A stretch of 29,733 nt of DNA from assembly GCA_048941285.1 (NCBI GenBank), contig JBHLNS010000040.1, positions 1-29,733 of the forward strand. The letters run 5' to 3'. The position numbers and the translations under genes were made by a program. Numbering within the stretch: position 1 is the first letter of the stretch; every line of letters begins with the position of its first letter. The notes beneath the pieces are model-generated. The model worked only from the letters and a program-made list of their open reading frames with translations, did not search any database and was not told the origin of the DNA. Source of the stretch: Promethearchaeota archaeon (GTDB lineage Archaea; Asgardarchaeota; Lokiarchaeia; Sigyniarchaeales; SOKP01). Positions 12,165 through 20,381 of this stretch are shown here, one piece after another.

Positions 12165-13553
12165 TTAGATTTCAGAAATCATCTTTTCCATTTTCGAAAT
12201 CATTTCTTGTGCCTTATCTTTGTCTTCTGATTCAGCAGAAAGAAGTATTGCATTTCTATAAAGTGCAACTTTAATAATGATATAAGCATCATCTCCAATA
12301 ATCTTCAGTTCATTTATGATATCATGGTATTTATATCCATTTTCTTCTGCTAATTCTCTTAATCTATTGTGTATATTTTTTATTAAATCTGAGGAAACGG
12401 AAATAGTTTTATTAATTTTTATTCCTTTAGGAAATCCTCTAGTTAACGAGCTAAGGAGGTCGTCTTGAGTCGTCATAATTTCAAGAACTTTAAGTAGAAT
12501 GAAATTCCCATCGGAAAATGGGGCATATTCACTGAAGTAAAACTTCAATGTATCTGCAGCTGCAAAGCATGCTCTTTCTTCCCTTATTTGTCTTGAAATC
12601 TCCCCAGGATAATTTTCTACTTGTTTTAAAGGAAAATTACTATCTTCAATAAACTTTTTTACAATTGGAGATATTGAAGGGCTGGTAATGATGGTACTTC
12701 CTTTAGATTTTTGAATTCTTTTATCAAAAGTAATAAATAGCATCAATAAATCTTCATAGCTAATTTCCAAACCATTTTCATCTATTATTAATATCCTTGA
12801 ACCATCCACATCAAAACAGACACCAAGGTGACTATTTGATGCTTTTACAATATCAGCTGTATTTCTAATAGTATTAATACTAGGTAAAGGACTTGAAGAT
12901 CTTTCACGATAATGGGTATTTAATGCAATTACTTCAACACCAATATCATTGATTAAAAGGGGAGTTATTTTTCCAGTTGGGCCATAAGAGCAATCTACCA
13001 CAATCTTTAATTTAGCGGCTTTAATTTTCTTTTTGTCAACAAATTGTTGGAGTGATTTAATATAAATATCAGCAGTCTGAGGTATTGCTGTTATTTGGCC
13101 TATTGCGTTAGGATCAACTCTTCTTACTTGTTGAGGGTAATCGTTATAAGACTCAATAATTCTTTGAAGTTCAGATTGCGCTAATTCAATTCCTCCTGCA
13201 TCTAAGAAACGAATTCCCACATCTTCACTATATAAATGACCTCCTGAGAAATAAAAACCTCCACTTGCCCCAAATCGCCTTATTGTAAACTGTAACAAAG
13301 GAAAAGTACAATCTGAGAGATTTAAAAGATTAATTCCAGTAGACATCATACCTGAGGTATATGCTCTTTTCAACATCCGACTATCATTATGGTAGTCTCT
13401 CCCCATTACTATTGATTCTCCTGGTTTAAATAGGCTACCATGAATTGATCCTATTGAGCTTGATATTTCTGGTGTAAATACATAATTTGCTTTGCCAATA
13501 ATCCGACCGTTTTTTTTTAACTCATTAAGATTTTTGATTGGGTTATGAATCAT
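12165..13553 (-). CDS. alpha-D-phosphohexomutase (PGM/PMM) superfamily protein with degenerate active site
   Basis: GRD...SRMLKRA, IVVDCSYG, FDVDGSR and DG..ILLKVLE follow the PGM/PMM layout. The phospho-Ser motif (TASHNP) reads FSGGHLY. Confidence 0.85.
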   Translation of the reverse strand: MIHNPIKNLNELKKNGRIIGKANYVFTPEISSSIGSIHGSLFKPGESIVMGRDYHNDSRMLKRAYTSGMMSTGINLLNLSDCTFPLLQFTIRRFGASGGFYFSGGHLYSEDVGIRFLDAGGIELAQSELQRIIESYNDYPQQVRRVDPNAIGQITAIPQTADIYIKSLQQFVDKKKIKAAKLKIVVDCSYGPTGKITPLLINDIGVEVIALNTHYRERSSSPLPSINTIRNTADIVKASNSHLGVCFDVDGSRILIIDENGLEISYEDLLMLFITFDKRIQKSKGSTIITSPSISPIVKKFIEDSNFPLKQVENYPGEISRQIREERACFAAADTLKFYFSEYAPFSDGNFILLKVLEIMTTQDDLLSSLTRGFPKGIKINKTISVSSDLIKNIHNRLRELAEENGYKYHDIINELKIIGDDAYIIIKVALYRNAILLSAESEDKDKAQEMISKMEKMISEI

Positions 13554-13743
13554 ATAATCCTACTTTTTTAAAATTTCGATGAATTTTCAATTGGAAATTA
13601 TATATGATAAAAAGCTAAATAAAAATATATAACTTTAACGATTTTTAACTATTTAAGATTCTCTTTAATATTAAAAATATGAAAAATTATATAACATTAG
13701 CAAATTTCGATTAATTATACTTTCATAGAGATATTATAGAATT

Positions 13744-15489
13744 ATGACAGATATTTTAGGATCATTTAATTTAGTGCTTCATTCTCACCTTCCTTGGGTC
13801 CTTGGTCACGGAAAATAATGCGAACTTATCGCTCTATACGGAATATGGCCCCATGGGATGGACTGGGTTAACGAAGCGGCTGCTGAAACTTATATTCCAC
13901 TTCTTATTGAATTATATAAATTAGTTGATGATGGCTATCACCCAAAACTTACAATCGGTCTAACACCAGTTTTATGTGAAATGCTCCGTAACCCTAAATT
14001 CACTGAAGGATTCTTGGGGTATCTAGAGGAAAAATATAATGCAGCTTCATACGATTTTGAAGACTTTACTAAGAATAAATATGAAGACGGAAGAATTAAA
14101 TTAACAAAATGGTGGCAGGAATTCTATAACCGAGTACGGGATAATTTCATAAATAGATACAATAAGGACATTGTTGGTGCTTTTAAAAACTTACAAGATA
14201 TGGGACTAGTAGATATTATCACTTGTGGGGCATCTCATGGATATGCTCCATTACTTTCTAAAGACTCATCAATTGATGCTCAATTTAAAACAGCAGTTGA
14301 TAATTATAAGACACATTTTGGGAGAGCTCCTTCAGGAGTTTGGTTACCTGAGTGCGCTTATCGTCCAGGATACCGTTGGAAAAATCCTATAAGTGGAGAA
14401 GAATATAATCGACCTGGTGTAGAATATTTTCTTGCTAAAAATGGTTTAAAATATTTCTTTATTGATACTGCATTACTATTAGGAGGAAAATCGCAAGGAG
14501 TCTATGCTGCTCGGTTTCCTTTACTTGCTGAGCTGTGGAAGCAATTTGAATCCCAATATGAAGAAATTCCAACTTCTTTTGAAAAATCTCAATATGAACC
14601 ATATTTAGTGTCCACTGATCCAAGTACTCCTGGGCCTGTAGGCTTCTTTACTAGAGATGAAAAAACAGGGATTGTTGTTTGGAGCGGAGAACATGGATAC
14701 CCAGGCTGTGCAGAATACCTTGATTTCCACAAAAAACATTATCCTGGAGGGCTTCGATATTGGAAAGTTACAGAAGCTAAATTAGATTTAGGGAAAAAGA
14801 TGCTTTATTGGCCAGAAGATATACCTGGTAAACTTGATGAAAACGCAGGTCATTATCTAAATCTTATTAAAGATATTTTAAGGGACTATAACCATAAAAA
14901 CGGAACAAAGGGAATTGTAGTGGCTCCTTACGATGCAGAATTATTTGGACACTGGTGGTTTGAGGGCAATTGGTGGTTAGCTAGAGTTCTTCGGTGGGTA
15001 GAGGATGATCCGGAAGTAGAATTGACGAATTCTCGAATATATTTAGAAGCTAATCCGCCTAATAAAGTTGTTTCTGTGATTGAGGGCTCATGGGGGCAAG
15101 CTAGCTCTCATTGGGTCTGGTTAAATGAGTGGACTACTTGGACATGGGAAAGGATATATGAATGTGAAGCGAAGAGTGAAGATATCATATCAAAACACAA
15201 AGATTCAAATGATACTAATTTACTCAAAATTTTAAAACAGATGGCGAGAGAACTGTTATTATTAGAGAGTAGTGATTGGCAGTTTTTAATAACAACTTGG
15301 TCCGCTAGAGATTATGCAGAAAATAGAATTGCCTTACACTATGACAATTTTAATAGATTATATAATATGGCTATTAAATATGCGAACGGGCAAAATGTTG
15401 AAGAAGGTGAATGGCACTTTTTAGGAACAATTGAAGCTGTAGACGATATATTTGAAGCTTTAGACCTTGAGCCTTTTGCTAAAAAGTAA
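13744..15489 (+). CDS. GH57 1,4-alpha-glucan branching enzyme (DUF1957 type), interrupted by a 30-nt stop-containing insert
   Basis: ATG 13744 gives MTDILGSFNLVLHSHLPWVLGHGK* (GH57 region I HxHxP). The same frame resumes WPHGMDWVNEAAAETYIPLL, then WLPECAY (nucleophile), PYDAELFGHWWFEG (acid/base) and ESSDWQF. The ORF track starts only at 13858. Confidence 0.9.
13816..13845 (+). other. 30-nt in-frame coding gap/insert in the GH57 gene
   Basis: TAATGCGAACTTATCGCTCTATACGGAATA. Removing it restores HGK-WPHG. Matched ACGGAA(A/T)AT repeats lie exactly 30 nt apart (13808, 13838), with an internal hairpin GCGA-ACTTA-TCGC (13820-13832). Confidence 0.8.
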
Positions 15490-15637: not shown

Positions 15638-16786
15638 ATGAGATCAATTACTAATGAAAAATATGAAGTTCTGCTTAACTTTCTCGAGGAAAAAAAGATT
15701 GATATTTTAATGATCTGTGATTTTGAAAATGCGAGAAATGTCAATTTACAATATATTACAGGGCATCCAACAGATGCTATTCTTTTAATTACAAAAAATG
15801 GGGAATCTGTCTTAATTCCTGGAGATTATCAATTGGCGAAAGAATACGCTGAAGTTGATGAAATTATTGATCTAGGCAATTACAAATATAACTTCTATTT
15901 GGCAATAAAAGAGTTAGTGGAGAACCGATGGAAAAAATCTTCAATAATTTTTGGAGCTCATGAAGCAACTCCCTATGGTACAATTATTAAAATGAAACAA
16001 AATATATCACAGCTTCAATTTTTCAAGGATCCTATTCAAATTACAGAAATTCTGCATACATTAAGAGCAACAAAGAGTGAATATGAATTAAATCAATTAA
16101 AACAGGCAGCACAAGTGGGAAACAATACAATTAAAGATATCAGAAATTTTTCGGAAACTCTCATTGATGGAACTGAGAAAGATTTATCATTTTTAGTCCA
16201 GAAGAGAATGCTAGAATATGGAGCAGATGATATTGCTTTTGAATCATTAGTGGCAAATGCAACTCGTTCTCATGAACTACATTGTTATCCCAATGCTACT
16301 AATCAGATATTTTCTTTACAAGGATTGGCTTTAATTGATTTTGGAGCAAAAGTTCATGGATATTGCTCAGATATAACTGTTCCAATTAGTTTTGGAGCAT
16401 TATCTGACGAACAACGAAAAATGCGGGATTTGGTTATAACATCTTATGAAGCTGCAATAGATATAATAGATATTGGAGTACCGCTATGGAAAATTCATGA
16501 AAAAGCTGATCAAGTGCTAAAAAAAGAGGGGTACAGTTTACCATATGCTTTGGGGCATGGTCTTGGGTTAACTGTGCATGATTCCCCAATAATTGGTCGT
16601 AAGCCTTCTGATGAATATTCTTTAAAAAATTGGAAGGAGGAAGTAGTACAAGATGGTATGGTTTTCACAATTGAACCTGGAGTTTATAAGCAAGGATTGG
16701 GAGGCGTCAGATTAGAAAATGATGTTCTAATTAAGAATGGAAAGATTGAAATAATAACAAAATCAGAATACATGAATATAGATTAG
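15638..16786 (+). CDS. Xaa-Pro aminopeptidase/prolidase (M24B)
   Basis: LIDFGA, GYCSDIT, LGHGLGLTVHD, FTIEPG and GVRLENDV metal-ligand motifs; creatinase-like N-terminal domain. Confidence 0.92.
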   Translation: MRSITNEKYEVLLNFLEEKKIDILMICDFENARNVNLQYITGHPTDAILLITKNGESVLIPGDYQLAKEYAEVDEIIDLGNYKYNFYLAIKELVENRWKKSSIIFGAHEATPYGTIIKMKQNISQLQFFKDPIQITEILHTLRATKSEYELNQLKQAAQVGNNTIKDIRNFSETLIDGTEKDLSFLVQKRMLEYGADDIAFESLVANATRSHELHCYPNATNQIFSLQGLALIDFGAKVHGYCSDITVPISFGALSDEQRKMRDLVITSYEAAIDIIDIGVPLWKIHEKADQVLKKEGYSLPYALGHGLGLTVHDSPIIGRKPSDEYSLKNWKEEVVQDGMVFTIEPGVYKQGLGGVRLENDVLIKNGKIEIITKSEYMNID

Positions 16787-17018
16787 ATAATTAGTAATTT
16801 TTAGAATATTTGCTACATATTCTCTAAATTGAGTTTTCTCTTTCAAGTTTTTTATATATTCTATTATTATTTTATATTAAATGATACTGCTCTGCTAAGC
16901 CGAAAAGATTTTTAGATTTTCAGGTAATTTAAACAACTATAAGGAAATTGCATTAAGTTTTTATTTAACCCTAACTATTTGATTTCTAAAGATTATCTAC
17001 TGATTATTTATTTTAATT

Positions 17019-17069
17019 ATGGTAGCTGTAAGAACTCTATCTTGGCAGTGGCCTTGGCAGTGGCAATAA
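17019..17069 (+). CDS. putative tryptophan-rich leader peptide (TrpL-like uORF), MVAVRTLSWQWPWQWQ
   Basis: ATG GTA GCT GTA AGA ACT CTA TCT TGG CAG TGG CCT TGG CAG TGG CAA TAA. Four TGG codons within seven codons, 148 nt upstream of trpB2, forming a GC-richer island in an AT-rich spacer. Confidence 0.8.
   Translation: MVAVRTLSWQWPWQWQ
17041..17064 (+). repeat. perfect 12-nt tandem repeat CTTGGCAGTGGC x2
   Basis: 17041-17052 and 17053-17064 are identical and generate the WQW-P-WQW pattern. Confidence 0.95.
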
Positions 17070-17106
17070 AGCCAATTGCATTTGATTTTAGTTTTATTTA
17101 TTTTTT
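17057..17106 (+). terminator. candidate attenuator: hairpin followed by U-rich tract
   Basis: GCAG-TGGC / AATAAA loop / GCCA-(A)-TTGC (17057-17079; 8 bp with one G-U pair and one bulge), followed by TTTGATTTTAGTTTTATTTATTTTTT. Confidence 0.55.
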
Positions 17107-17187
17107 GCTTTAATATTTTTACTTTAAATATTAAATCCTCTTTCTAAATGAGCATTAATTAAATTGAATTCCAATTTTTTAATGATA

Positions 17188-17203
17188 CACATTTTAAAAT
17201 GTG
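17188..17203. promoter_or_regulatory. perfect 16-bp palindrome CACATTTTAAAATGTG upstream of trpB2
   Basis: Self-complementary; overlaps an SD-like ATGTGA and ends 14 nt before ATG 17218. Confidence 0.4.
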
Positions 17204-17217
17204 AAAAGTAAATACAG

Positions 17218-18633
17218 ATGGTAAATAATATGACAGATTATTATAATGGAAGAATTTTATTACAACCAAATGAAATTCCAAAAACTTGGGTAAATATATT
17301 ACCAGATTTACCTTCTCCTATGACACCCTTACTCAATCCAATGGATAGGAAACCAATTCCCCCAGAAATGGCATTTGCTATTTTTCCTAAAGAATGTGTA
17401 TTACAAGAACTCGCCTCAGAACCGACGATTCCTATTCCGAAGGAACTAAGGGAAATTTTTGCTAGAACTTATCGACCAAGCCCACTCCATCGTGCATTGA
17501 GATTAGAAAAACAATTAGGTATAGAAGGAGATAAGATTAAAATTTTTTATAAAAATGAATCAGTTTCTCCTACAGGTTCACATAAACCTAATACCGCTAT
17601 AGTTCAAGCCTACTATGCTATGAAAGAAGGATTAGAAGGATTGGTCACCGAAACAGGAGCCGGACAATGGGGCTCTGCTTTAGCATTTGGCTGTAAACTA
17701 TTTGACATTAATTGTACTGTTTATATGGTGAGAGCAAGCTTTTTTCAAAAACCAGGAAGAAAAATTTTGATGAAAGCTTTTAATGCCGATGTATATGCGA
17801 GTCCTTCAAGTTTTACCGACTCTGGAAAGAAATTTTTGGAAATAGATCAAAATCACCCGGGAAGTTTAGGAATTGCGATATCTGAGGCATTGGAACATAG
17901 TATGAGGTATGAAAAAATAAAATATTCTCTCGGAAGTGTAGTGAATTTTGTATTATTACATCAAACTATTATCGGACAAGAGGTAAAAACTCAACTAGCA
18001 AAAGTGGGGATTGAAAAACCTGATATATTAATTGGATGCATGGGAGGTGGATCCAACTTTGCTGGTATGATGATCCCATTTGTTAAAGATCAACTGATTG
18101 CACAAACTTCAGATATAGAATTTATCGGTGTAGAACCTCGAGCTTGCCCAAGTGTATCGAAAGGAGAGTATAGATGGGACTACGGAGACTCTGCGATGAA
18201 AGGGCCTATAGTAAAGATGTATACTTTAGGACATACTTTTATCCCTAGTTCAATTCACGCAGGAGGATTAAGATACCATGGAATTGCTCCCATTATTTCA
18301 ATTCTACATAATAAACGAATTATCGATACTACAATGCATCATCAAACTGAAGTAATTAGTGCTGGTCTTCAATTTGCAAAAGCTGAAGGAATACTTCCGG
18401 CTCCAGAAAGTGCCCATGCTATCAAGGAAGCGATTGATCAAGCATTGAAAGCCAAAGAAAATAACGTAAAGAAGGTAATTTTATTCAATCTTAGTGGTCA
18501 TGGCTTTTTTGATTTCTTAGCTTACGAAGAATTCATGAACGGAAATTTGAAAGAATATGAATTACCTATCGATGATATTCGAAAAAACTTAGATTCAGAA
18601 GAAATGCCTGTAATTGACGAATCTCAATTTTAA
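17218..18633 (+). CDS. trpB2: tryptophan synthase beta chain type 2 (TrpB2, stand-alone)
   Basis: Long N-terminus with IPKTWVNILPDLP; PLP lysine in GSHKPN; ETGAGQWGSAL, GGGSNF, HAGGLRYHG, PAPESAHA and NLSGHG motifs. No trpA nearby. Confidence 0.95.
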   Translation: MVNNMTDYYNGRILLQPNEIPKTWVNILPDLPSPMTPLLNPMDRKPIPPEMAFAIFPKECVLQELASEPTIPIPKELREIFARTYRPSPLHRALRLEKQLGIEGDKIKIFYKNESVSPTGSHKPNTAIVQAYYAMKEGLEGLVTETGAGQWGSALAFGCKLFDINCTVYMVRASFFQKPGRKILMKAFNADVYASPSSFTDSGKKFLEIDQNHPGSLGIAISEALEHSMRYEKIKYSLGSVVNFVLLHQTIIGQEVKTQLAKVGIEKPDILIGCMGGGSNFAGMMIPFVKDQLIAQTSDIEFIGVEPRACPSVSKGEYRWDYGDSAMKGPIVKMYTLGHTFIPSSIHAGGLRYHGIAPIISILHNKRIIDTTMHHQTEVISAGLQFAKAEGILPAPESAHAIKEAIDQALKAKENNVKKVILFNLSGHGFFDFLAYEEFMNGNLKEYELPIDDIRKNLDSEEMPVIDESQF

Positions 18634-18637
18634 TTCA

Positions 18638-18648
18638 TTTTTTTTTTT
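18638..18648 (+). terminator. oligo-T archaeal-type terminator after trpB2
   Basis: Run of 11 T immediately after the stop codon. Confidence 0.5.
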
Positions 18649-18688
18649 AATCAAAATTTTTTAAGAATTAGATTTGACTTTAATTCAT

Positions 18689-19249
18689 TTATAATGATTT
18701 ATCTAAAATATTGTTAATAGTCTCTTCTAATTTATTAGATAATTCTTTATCAGCATTCCCGCAAGATTTTAAGATTATTTTTGCTTGATCAGCGTAATCG
18801 ACTTGCTTCTTTACTGTCCAGTCATCCACCATTTCCAAGAGATTATCTATCCTGTCAGCTATTTTAATAATTTTTGCTTCTTTTGAACTATTTATGAAAT
18901 TTTCTAGCCATTCATCTTTTTTACGACCTTTCACATCTTTAGGTTTAGTAAGCTCATTAACGATAGAAACAATTTTTTTTCCAAAATTCTTCTCAATTTC
19001 TTTAAAACTAATGTTAGTGTCTTCCAGAAGATCATGAAATAATGCTGCAATCATTAGTTCTTCATCTTTAAATTCATTGAATCCCGCTGCTCGCAAAATT
19101 AAAGTAATACGAATTGGATGTATGATATATAGAATATCTTTTGCCCGCCGTTTCAGATTGCCATATTTTTCAAAAGCAAAAGATAGAGCTTTCCAGTAAT
19201 TCGAAAAATCTTGCATATAAAAACCATTAAAATTACAATTCTGTTCCAA
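18689..19249 (-). CDS. HD-domain hydrolase of the RelA/SpoT-Mesh1 (small alarmone hydrolase) type
   Basis: YIIHP, AALFHDLLEDT, VNELTK and IKIADRIDNL motifs. True start is probably ATG 19216 (MQDFSNY), which avoids overlap with the upstream gene. Confidence 0.85.
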   Translation of the reverse strand: MEQNCNFNGFYMQDFSNYWKALSFAFEKYGNLKRRAKDILYIIHPIRITLILRAAGFNEFKDEELMIAALFHDLLEDTNISFKEIEKNFGKKIVSIVNELTKPKDVKGRKKDEWLENFINSSKEAKIIKIADRIDNLLEMVDDWTVKKQVDYADQAKIILKSCGNADKELSNKLEETINNILDKSL

Positions 19250-20381
19250 GTTCTAAAGTTTTATCTCGAATTTGAGAATTACTACTTATTTTACAATTGG
19301 GGGCAATAATAGCTCGCTCTAAAACCACATTATCACCAATTTGACAATTATTACAAATTATACTTTCTGTGATAATACAACCCGCACCGATTTTAATCTC
19401 ATCCCATATTACGCTTTTTTCTATTATAGTATCTTCTCCGATTGTTACATTGTTTCCAATGGATGTTAATTCTTTGATCTTAACTCGGTTCTCCAACTGA
19501 ACAAATTCCCCGAAACAAGTAGGCTTTTTGATTATGATATTTTGTCCAGAATTGATTATCCCCATTATAAAGATTTCATCATATTCTACACCATTAGGTA
19601 AAATAGGCCAAGCATATTTACGTAAAAGATCCCAATTCGCCCATAAGTAAGTAATCGAATTCCCTGCATCCATCCAATAATAGTTCTCAACAAAACCATA
19701 TAAATTATATTTATTTTCAAGTAAATAGGGGAAAACTTCGCCACCAAAATCCATTAAACCCGTTTCATGAAGAATATCTCCAATTTCATTATTAAAACAG
19801 TAGATTCCAGTGTTGGCAACATTTGTATGTAAAAAAAGATCTTCTCGTTGAGACATGCTACTTAAATATAATTCCATTGGTCCAGGTTTTTCTAGAAACA
19901 GGTAAATCTTCCTATTATTATCCAATAATACAACACCATATTGAGAAATATGGCTTTCAACGGTTTTCATTGAAATCGTAGCTATTCCTCCCTTATTTGA
20001 GTGAAACTCCATGAAACGTTTCATTGGAAGATTGGTTACAATGTCCGCCATTGATACTACAATATTTTTTGAATCAATACGATCTGTTAAGAGCCTATAG
20101 GCATCTGCAGTACCTTTACTCTCTTGAATATAACATTCTAATTCAACGTCTCCCAATTTGTCTTTTGTCCATGTTTTATTAATGTAATCTTTCATTTCCT
20201 TTCCCATATATGCTAATGCCAGAATTACATGCTTAATGTTAGCGTACAATATATGTGCAATAGCATAATCGACCATAGGGACATTTGTGACTTTAACTAG
20301 AGGTTTCGGAATTAGAGAGGTCAATGGCATTAAACGCGCGCCTTTACCACCAGCTAGAATTATAGCAGACCACTCTCTCAA
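19233..20381 (-). CDS. NDP-sugar pyrophosphorylase (mannose-1-phosphate guanylyltransferase-like) with C-terminal left-handed beta-helix
   Basis: ILAGGKGARLMPLT, PKPL, GTADA, YGVV, FLEKP, NTGIY, YWMDAG and hexapeptide repeats. TTG start with GAGGT 7 nt upstream. Confidence 0.9.
   Translation of the reverse strand: MREWSAIILAGGKGARLMPLTSLIPKPLVKVTNVPMVDYAIAHILYANIKHVILALAYMGKEMKDYINKTWTKDKLGDVELECYIQESKGTADAYRLLTDRIDSKNIVVSMADIVTNLPMKRFMEFHSNKGGIATISMKTVESHISQYGVVLLDNNRKIYLFLEKPGPMELYLSSMSQREDLFLHTNVANTGIYCFNNEIGDILHETGLMDFGGEVFPYLLENKYNLYGFVENYYWMDAGNSITYLWANWDLLRKYAWPILPNGVEYDEIFIMGIINSGQNIIIKKPTCFGEFVQLENRVKIKELTSIGNNVTIGEDTIIEKSVIWDEIKIGAGCIITESIICNNCQIGDNVVLERAIIAPNCKISSNSQIRDKTLELGTEL

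Follow-up and report, generated by a model that had tools for sequence, protein, structure and literature searches.

What controls trpB2, the gene of a stand-alone TrpB-like enzyme, in an Asgard archaeon, and does the short reading frame rich in tryptophan (Trp) codons just ahead of it take part? The question arises from a 29,733-nt stretch of Promethearchaeota archaeon DNA (GenBank contig JBHLNS010000040.1; hereafter, the window), for which a preliminary description had proposed a ribosome-mediated Trp attenuator upstream of trpB2. Comparison of this locus with its relatives suggests a cis-acting, translated leader that very probably senses the supply of Trp-tRNA through its Trp codons. To the full statement, a Trp-sensing leader in which premature transcription termination is the controlled step, we give a probability of roughly 0.55.

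The Trp-codon leader and its conservation

The upstream open reading frame (uORF) occupies positions 17019–17069 (+) and reads MVAVRTLSWQWPWQWQ* (the asterisk marks the stop codon), 16 codons of which four specify Trp. The ATG (17019–17021) is followed by seven codons and then by TGG CAG TGG CCT TGG CAG TGG CAA TAA, with the TGG codons at 17043–45, 17049–51, 17055–57 and 17061–63 and the TAA stop (17067–17069) preceded by CAA. The UGG triplets of the leader are exactly 3 nt apart, and the next base is mostly C. The frame lies in a 430-nt AT-rich spacer between the end of an M24 peptidase gene (16786) and the pyridoxal phosphate (PLP)-enzyme gene trpB2, ~160 nt ahead of the trpB2 start; its presence there, as first described, is confirmed by the letters of the sequence.

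Such a frame is rare in its own genome. Counting both strands of the 3.55-Mb genome, there are three instances of four in-frame TGG codons at 3-base spacing, whereas the frequency of TGG would predict 0.12. Short ORFs (sORFs) of at most 35 aa that start with ATG and contain at least four Trp lie in 3 of 2524 regions upstream of long ORFs, the window uORF included; by the looser standard of an sORF that ends in WxW within the 700 nt preceding a long ORF, the background is 17/2524. Two other Trp-rich sORFs of this genome (MNRTWFWYWCRW... at C68/L190 and MCRWWWSYCRL at C91/L191), which precede genes for a winged-helix protein and PurD, were taken as chance occurrences. An nhmmer search of the same genome found no second copy of the leader and no shared operator; the leader is unique there. 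The preliminary description had also called for cognate leaders of other amino acids; a scan of the genome returned single-amino-acid candidates, none of them convincing.

We sampled 86 trpB2 loci of the family, 27 at the level of the genus and 59 from eleven other genera. The uORF is present at 27/27 genus loci and at 48 of the 59 others, 75/86 in all, and the conservation upstream of trpB2 orthologs that the attenuator idea calls for is thereby borne out. Within the genus, the uORFs lie at the same position and typically read MATVR...WQWPWxWQ*. Across the 75 uORFs, the number of Trp codons is two (8 loci), three (17), four (33), five (16) or six (1), i.e. at least three in 67/75. Start codons are ATG (67), TTG (7) and GTG (1), and stop codons TAA (42), TAG (24) and TGA (9). 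The frames are 12–46 codons long, and the last Trp lies 0–3 codons from the stop in 65/75. In the family of the window, the N-terminal residues vary freely and insertions and deletions comprise whole codons that keep the frame; because of these two properties, the pattern looks like that of a translated frame in which only the Trp codons and their position would matter. The frame is shifted in eight leaders of genus g28 and two of genus g1, with the end of the ORF moved downstream. In several of these (L084–L086, L088, L100 and L105 of g28, L022 and L027 of g1), single-base insertions or deletions shift the frame, two to three Trp are kept, and the uORF reads through the 3′ arm of the hairpin that normally spans the stop codon to a later stop. 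One genome (G116, contig C50) carries two trpB2 copies ~15 kb apart on opposite strands, each with its own Trp leader (L082, L083).

The even spacing of the triplets, mostly followed by C, would also suit an array of UGG repeats bound by a Trp-activated, TRAP-like RNA-binding protein or, as UGG is complementary to CCA, by tRNA-Trp, with the reading frame incidental. Such an array would not account for the retention of an in-frame start and stop, the varying identity of the stop codon or the whole-codon insertions and deletions, and some leaders contain only two or three repeats. The Bacillus TRAP leader contains repeated (G/U)AG triplets, whereas the Asgard repeats are UGG, and a search of the own genome for TRAP (PF02081) found none, with the Bacillus subtilis control detected. 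Rfam models (leaders, T-boxes, riboswitches) gave no match at gathering score in the window and none at E ≤ 10 in 16900–17300. We regard the UGG array as extremely improbable.

The leader is not confined to trpB2. A search of 135 family genomes with the motif TGGCAGTGGNNNTGG for copies away from trpB2 yielded further copies, of which ten were fetched. Eight of these ten are complete leaders of the same type: a uORF that ends in ...WQWPWRWQ* or similar is followed by the hairpin, by CATTGG, by a T tract and then by the proximal block described below. The other two (L234, L240) are not leaders. Each of the eight precedes a gene for TrpD (anthranilate phosphoribosyltransferase; PF00591 and PF02885), which is followed by one for TrpC (indole-3-glycerol-phosphate synthase; PF00218). 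TrpD is present in 25/135 family genomes, and 14 of the remaining 17 upstream regions also contain a Trp-rich uORF, e.g. MANEKIIPFRWHWSWRA*, which brings the total to 22/25; for one of the three trpD loci that lack a leader, only ~410 nt of upstream sequence were at hand. In genus g21, the leader stands on the trpD–trpC operon and mostly not on trpB2. The leader is associated exclusively with Trp-biosynthesis genes, always upstream and co-oriented. Since the same leader type precedes both trpB2 and trpD–trpC, one putative regulatory module serves two different Trp-biosynthesis units, and its presence ahead of trpD–trpC in relatives strengthens the attenuator idea. Between the leader and trpD, some loci carry a small ORF of 54–91 aa (L233:351–620, L235:349–588, L238:1600–1860 on the minus strand, L239:389–547) with a shared motif resembling ...GPEK.K.A.FIA.N; the two that were scanned (L233, L235) have no Pfam match.

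Comparable frames of unrelated sequence occur beyond the family. Six further families of the class carry a uORF with WxW among its last residues ahead of trpB2 at 16/21 loci; two more of these loci have two spaced Trp and three have none. The endings of these uORFs include ...TWPWH*, ...FWPWQ*, ...PWAWRP* and ...WRWQWCWRWQ*, and most of the uORFs are free of overlapping long frames. Genus g9 of family f2 (L030, L032, L035, L049) has a 29–31-aa leader with a conserved ...KVFVQSSLEE.TWPWH* and a long hairpin beginning at its stop codon; the conservation at the peptide level might mean a nascent-chain effect. Among 40 trpB2 loci sampled from other Asgard classes, a motif scan finds a conserved uORF ending in ...QW(x)(W)GPxGPV* at 10/16 loci of family f12, and one more locus contains the motif but reads past it; the GPxGP codons form a GGGUCC-N3-6-GGACCC hairpin directly after the Trp codons. 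The f12 uORF (L214–L216, L219, L221–L226, L231) lies ~160 nt before trpB2 and has a single Trp in some members. Trp-rich uORFs also precede trpB2 in family f8 (...WAWRWLLWP*, 2/3 loci) and family f30 (2/2). Nine other families of these classes, sampled at 19 loci, showed no Trp uORF before trpB2. At 55 trpB2 loci from records whose titles are not Asgard (Bathyarchaeia, Nitrososphaerales, Thermoplasmata, Micrarchaeia, some bacteria) we found no convincing equivalent, other short W-containing frames not being pursued. A recurrent MWEYWW-type frame before Bathyarchaeia trpB2 (L158, L164, L168, L169, L174, L189) was rejected as a false positive because it is embedded, out of frame, in a flap-endonuclease-like gene upstream; the case is a warning to check overlapping genes before W-rich sORFs are scored.

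Promoter, hairpins and the controlled step

A single promoter-like motif is common to the leaders. In the window, this archaeal BRE/TATA-like motif (transcription factor B recognition element, BRE), P1, spans 16953–16966 (+), with its TATA core from 16958. The position-weight matrix built from 75 aligned leaders has the consensus WTAANTTTWTAWWT, which reads as BRE plus TATA; the motif is present in 75/75 leaders with the core TTT-W-TA invariant. Among the 67 leaders with an ATG start, the motif precedes that ATG by 50–69 nt in 63. P1 reaches 14.0 bits, compared with 2.5 bits for the strongest site downstream of the uORF; sites of at least 8 bits follow the uORF in only 5/75 leaders. The promoters of the leaderless trpB2 genes of g21, which are outside the training set of the matrix, score 8.6–13.6 bits. 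With the usual archaeal spacing between TATA and start, the position of P1 implies that transcription starts near 16985–16990, ~30 nt before the uORF, and points to, though it does not prove, one transcript that begins there and covers both the uORF and trpB2. A trpB2 transcription start downstream of 17070 would speak against attenuation; so far, the sole conserved promoter-like motif lies upstream of the uORF. A scan for sigma-70 promoters was set aside as irrelevant to an archaeon.

These promoter scores also bear on an alternative in which the uORF encodes a Trp-rich micropeptide as a small gene in its own right, complete with terminator, and trpB2 has its promoter in the proximal block, which would be a transcription-factor operator. 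The T tract after the uORF would fit, and the proximal block is palindromic, AT-rich and kept in three genomes that lack the uORF. However, promoter-like sites of at least 8 bits follow the uORF in as few leaders as stated above, the peptide is not conserved apart from its Trp, wherever the uORF occurs a Trp gene of one of two kinds follows in the same orientation, and the variation of the block's main hairpin (H3) is biased toward wobble pairs, which points to RNA. A separate micropeptide gene thus appears very improbable. Coding signatures, the missing TRAP and the lack of an Rfam match make the non-translational readings (UGG array, micropeptide gene, DNA operator) unlikely as a group.

The minimum-energy fold of 17010–17120 contains two stem-loops. 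The first, H0 (17021–17053, +), is predicted to form between the sequence around the start codon and the first two Trp codons, and both of its strands are conserved at nucleotide level in the genus alignment. In the second, H1 (17057–17079, +), the 5′ arm takes in the last Trp codon, and a stem of eight pairs with one bulged A closes the loop AAUAAA, which contains the stop codon. H1 had been proposed from the outset as a hairpin that holds the last Trp codon and the stop and is followed by U-rich sequence, and both the fold and the letters agree. A stop-spanning hairpin of at least four pairs is present in the minimum-energy fold of 71/75 leaders. Its arms have at least ten different complementary sequences, which differ between clades with complementarity kept: UUGGC/GCCAA, GUGGC/GCCAC, GGCG/CGCC, GCGUU/AACGC, GUGUU/AACAC, GGUCU/AGACC, GGCGU/ACGCC, GUGC/GCAC and AAUGC/GCAUU are among them. 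The covariation across orthologs that had been named as a check on the hairpin was therefore found. Family f4 has the same layout with GC-rich stems of 8–12 bp (-19 to -22 kcal/mol), and in family f2 GGUUUUU comes directly after a long hairpin whose 5′ arm includes the stop. Many genera have an extra helix between UGGUUUA just before the uORF start and UAAACCA after H1; the window sequence lacks the G-C pairs of this helix.

H1 is followed by a U-rich tract at 17080–17106 (+; 20 T of 27, with T6 at 17101–17106), a candidate oligo-U termination site. Oligo-T is the usual archaeal termination signal. A T run of at least five within 70 nt of the stop is present in 59/75 leaders, clustered at +24 to +36 in five genera. 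Hairpin and T run are adjacent in some g28 and f2 leaders and usually apart.

We infer three steps, translation of the uORF, stalling, and termination as the regulated event, which would combine as follows. Transcription would begin at the conserved promoter ~30 nt before the uORF, and the four UGG codons would report the supply of charged tRNA-Trp to trpB2 on the same RNA. With Trp-tRNA plentiful, the ribosome would complete the uORF and depart, the Trp-codon stretch would pair with the sequence after the stop to form H1, and the polymerase would terminate at the oligo-U tract 15–40 nt beyond. With Trp-tRNA scarce, the ribosome would stall on the UGG codons, i.e. on the 5′ arm of H1; H1 would be blocked, the nascent RNA shielded by the stalled ribosome, and read-through into trpB2 would follow. 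TrpB2 could then produce Trp from salvaged indole.

The stalled ribosome could act without a hairpin. Archaea have the termination factor aCPSF1/FttA, archaeal termination needs no hairpin, and a TnaC-stalled ribosome blocks Rho. By analogy, a ribosome held on the UGG codons might keep aCPSF1/FttA off the U-rich RNA, a form of factor-dependent polarity in which H1 is not a terminator. The T run is often separated from H1, and the U-rich tract starts directly after the extended hairpin, as this proposal would have it; however, it gives no reason for clades and families to have retained complementarity between the sequences flanking the stop, and we consider it unlikely.

Downstream RNA helices and the case against termination

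A conserved block of ~110 nt with three further hairpins separates the U tract from trpB2. H2 (17109–17135, +), an A/U-only hairpin just after the U tract, shows compensatory changes in the genus alignment. H3 (17153–17184, +) is a long imperfect hairpin with the highly conserved core ATTG-N5-CAAT, in which 86% of alignment cells are paired and 9/12 pairs change on both sides. H4 (17188–17203, +; ACACAU...AUGUG) changes on both sides in 5/6 pairs, and its arms differ between genera. The sequence conserved after the T tract, GCATTA...ATTGAATTCCAAT...AATGAnACAC, folds as H3 plus H4. A covariance model of the H3/H4 block finds matches in 52/87 sources, all of them trpB2 or trpD leaders of the family, and none at the leaderless loci of g21 and g22 or in other families. 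In the H3/H4 alignment (A5), which was fitted to the model and hence favours the structure, 81.3% of cells pair, compared with 72.2 ± 0.8% in shuffled alignments (0/500 reach the observed value) and 29–54% in slid controls; 14/18 pairs of H3 and H4 change on both sides. In an independent MAFFT alignment of the block, wobble cells outnumber A-C cells 24 to 4, which suggests that H3 acts as RNA rather than as a DNA palindrome. A protein acting on the H3 block may also be involved.

In trpB2 and trpD leaders alike, this block separates the start codon from the U tract, and its position raises the possibility that the sensor has another output, in which stalling remodels the leader RNA and thereby alters translation initiation on trpB2 or mRNA stability, with no premature termination. 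For example, the conserved CAUUGGA after H1 could be freed to pair with UCCAAU in H3. That H3 and H4 behave as RNA helices in the pairing statistics given above would fit; so would genus g29, where the 3′ arm of H4 occupies the position of the GGT element that precedes the start codon in others. Against this, both CAUUGGA and UCCAAU are nearly invariant and their pairing therefore offers no covariation to judge by, constrained folds show no consistent opening of the start region, the alignment that supports the helices favours the structure by construction, and the H3/H4 block persists without the uORF in three genomes. Remodelling without termination is thus a tentative alternative, which we consider rather doubtful.

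Termination as the controlled step has to be weighed against a number of observations that do not favour it. At the level of structure, the local fold of 17010–17120 is unexceptional (z -0.59; 53/200 shuffles are as good), and complementarity between the Trp block and the 24 nt downstream is on average modestly better than in shuffled sequences (mean z -1.04, 14/75 leaders below -2). RNAalifold consensus structures of whole leaders are weak (A1, 16 pairs at -8 kcal/mol; A3, 3 pairs); the A3 fold is poor because the hairpin register differs between clades, and hairpins were counted in folds of individual sequences instead. The proposed mutually exclusive folds stand in part: TTGGC at 17042–46 and 17054–58 and GCCAA at 17071–75 are where they had been placed, and alternative partners for GCCAA exist, but a conserved antiterminator (2:3) helix was not found in RNAalifold or constrained folds, and constrained folds mimicking a stalled ribosome revealed no consistent switch. 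As for the terminator, a scan of the window for bacterial-type terminators found no site, T runs abound in DNA as AT-rich as this (genome-wide expectation, 0.40 per 70 nt), and the T6 of the window lies ~20 nt past H1. The window uORF has no clear ribosome-binding motif before it. Transcript data are confined to one metatranscriptome run (7% of sampled words), whose matches to 16500–18700 amount to three contig pieces, each internal to trpB2 and two less than 90% alike. Finally, 11/86 trpB2 loci lack the uORF (four in g21, four in g22, three in g27), and the three g27 genomes (L068, L070, L071) have lost the uORF and kept the H3/H4 block and the GGT element. Because the H3/H4 block is kept without the uORF, H2–H4 has a putative role of its own, and a simple attenuator would have no need for it. 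In one of the three uORF-less g27 leaders, part of the 3′ arm of H1 survives.

Known systems, novelty and the host genome

Leader-peptide attenuation is a textbook bacterial mechanism. The Asgard leader shares with E. coli trpL a short leader ORF with adjacent Trp codons ahead of Trp biosynthesis genes, Trp codons in the 5′ strand of a hairpin, a U-rich tract before the structural gene and, as proposed here, the logic of read-through when Trp-tRNA is scarce. It differs from trpL in its BRE/TATA promoter, in the terminal position of its two to six Trp codons, in a stop codon within the hairpin loop, in the lack of a detectable 2:3 antiterminator, in a U tract that usually stands apart from the hairpin, in the additional H2–H4 block and in having no Rfam match. 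TnaC senses free Trp via a conserved peptide and induces catabolism (tna operon). Here too, arrest of the ribosome close to the 3′ end of a short leader ORF would keep transcription from terminating just downstream; in contrast to TnaC, the peptide of the window's family varies apart from Trp and the targets are biosynthetic. In f12 and f2, where the peptide tails are conserved, a TnaC-type arrest peptide may yet apply. TrpY, a DNA-binding repressor at promoters of methanogen trp genes, trpB2 included, is alike as archaeal control of trp genes and trpB2, whereas the conserved Asgard element consists of a reading frame and RNA helices.

Related leaders have been described in bacteria. PMC8632103 treats His- and Trp-rich leaders of bacteria and mentions the E. 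coli trp attenuator, that attenuator appears only in the reference list in PMC10450193, and PMC10219788 makes the general statement that uORFs are active in archaea. Sinorhizobium meliloti trpL, upstream of trpE(G), is likewise reported to combine a Trp-codon uORF with ribosome-dependent attenuation in a bacterial system and in a genome with separate Trp transcription units, as in the Asgard relatives. Mycobacterial polycysteine sORFs (bioRxiv 10.1101/834739) are reported to act as Cys-responsive attenuators, in which repeated codons for one amino acid make a tiny uORF a sensor of it for the genes downstream. The mycobacterial Cys attenuators are leaderless and bacterial, whereas the position of the TATA element suggests a 5′ untranslated region of ~30 nt for the Asgard uORF. 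In the open full-text literature, with supplements and most subscription journals outside the scope of the search, we found no archaeal leader-peptide attenuator; what came up was bacterial attenuators and unrelated papers.

The comparisons support a new archaeal variant of leader-peptide attenuation, common in one Asgard class and also found in others. On balance we lean toward the view that ribosome-mediated amino-acid attenuation exists in Archaea, with Trp leaders comprising a stop-codon hairpin and oligo-U that govern the Asgard trp operon and stand-alone trpB2 (in Promethearchaeia and some other classes) and with H2–H4 as a second input. If this is correct, Asgard archaea would read amino-acid supply via the ribosome with archaeal promoters and oligo-U termination, and the closest prokaryotic relatives of eukaryotes would have functional transcription-translation coupling or uORF-driven RNA switching. 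The leader would then offer a testable handle on such coupling in the Asgard lineage and a sequence signature for annotating Trp regulons.

The downstream gene, trpB2 (17230–18633, +), encodes a stand-alone TrpB-like PLP enzyme of 467 aa. Its identity rests on NCBIfam NF009057 (625.4 bits, cut-off 366) and TIGR01415 (577.4 bits, cut-off 518.85); with the canonical trpB model TIGR00263, the window TrpB2 scores under the cut-off. The true start is probably the ATG at 17230, which is conserved across orthologs, and not 17218. A GGT at 17220–17222 (+), 8 nt before this start, may serve as a Shine-Dalgarno-like element; its GG is invariant or almost so in alignment A1.

The host assembly comprises 3.55 Mb, is 94% complete and has ~30% G+C; the window is its contig C70. 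No small-subunit rRNA gene was found in the assembly. The closest TrpB2 relatives stem from records titled Promethearchaeota, Promethearchaeia, Loki_b31/b32 and Hermodarchaeota, in line with the Asgard-type host assumed in the preliminary description. The own genome has no match for TrpA, indole-3-glycerol-phosphate synthase (IGPS; TrpC) or the chorismate-binding domain of TrpE, each of which was matched in 14/14 control genomes, nor for TrpD or a second TrpB. Given the missing TrpA, TrpC, TrpD and TrpE matches and the known TrpB reaction, the window trpB2 probably makes Trp from salvaged or imported indole. If the attenuator model holds, a pathway lost except for TrpB2 would still be under Trp-starvation control, which fits salvage of indole supplied by a partner. 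No other amino-acid gene lies near trpB2 in the window; its neighbours (12165–15489 and 19233–20381) are sugar/glycogen genes that encode a phosphoglucomutase-like protein, a GH57 branching-enzyme-like protein and a nucleotidyl transferase.

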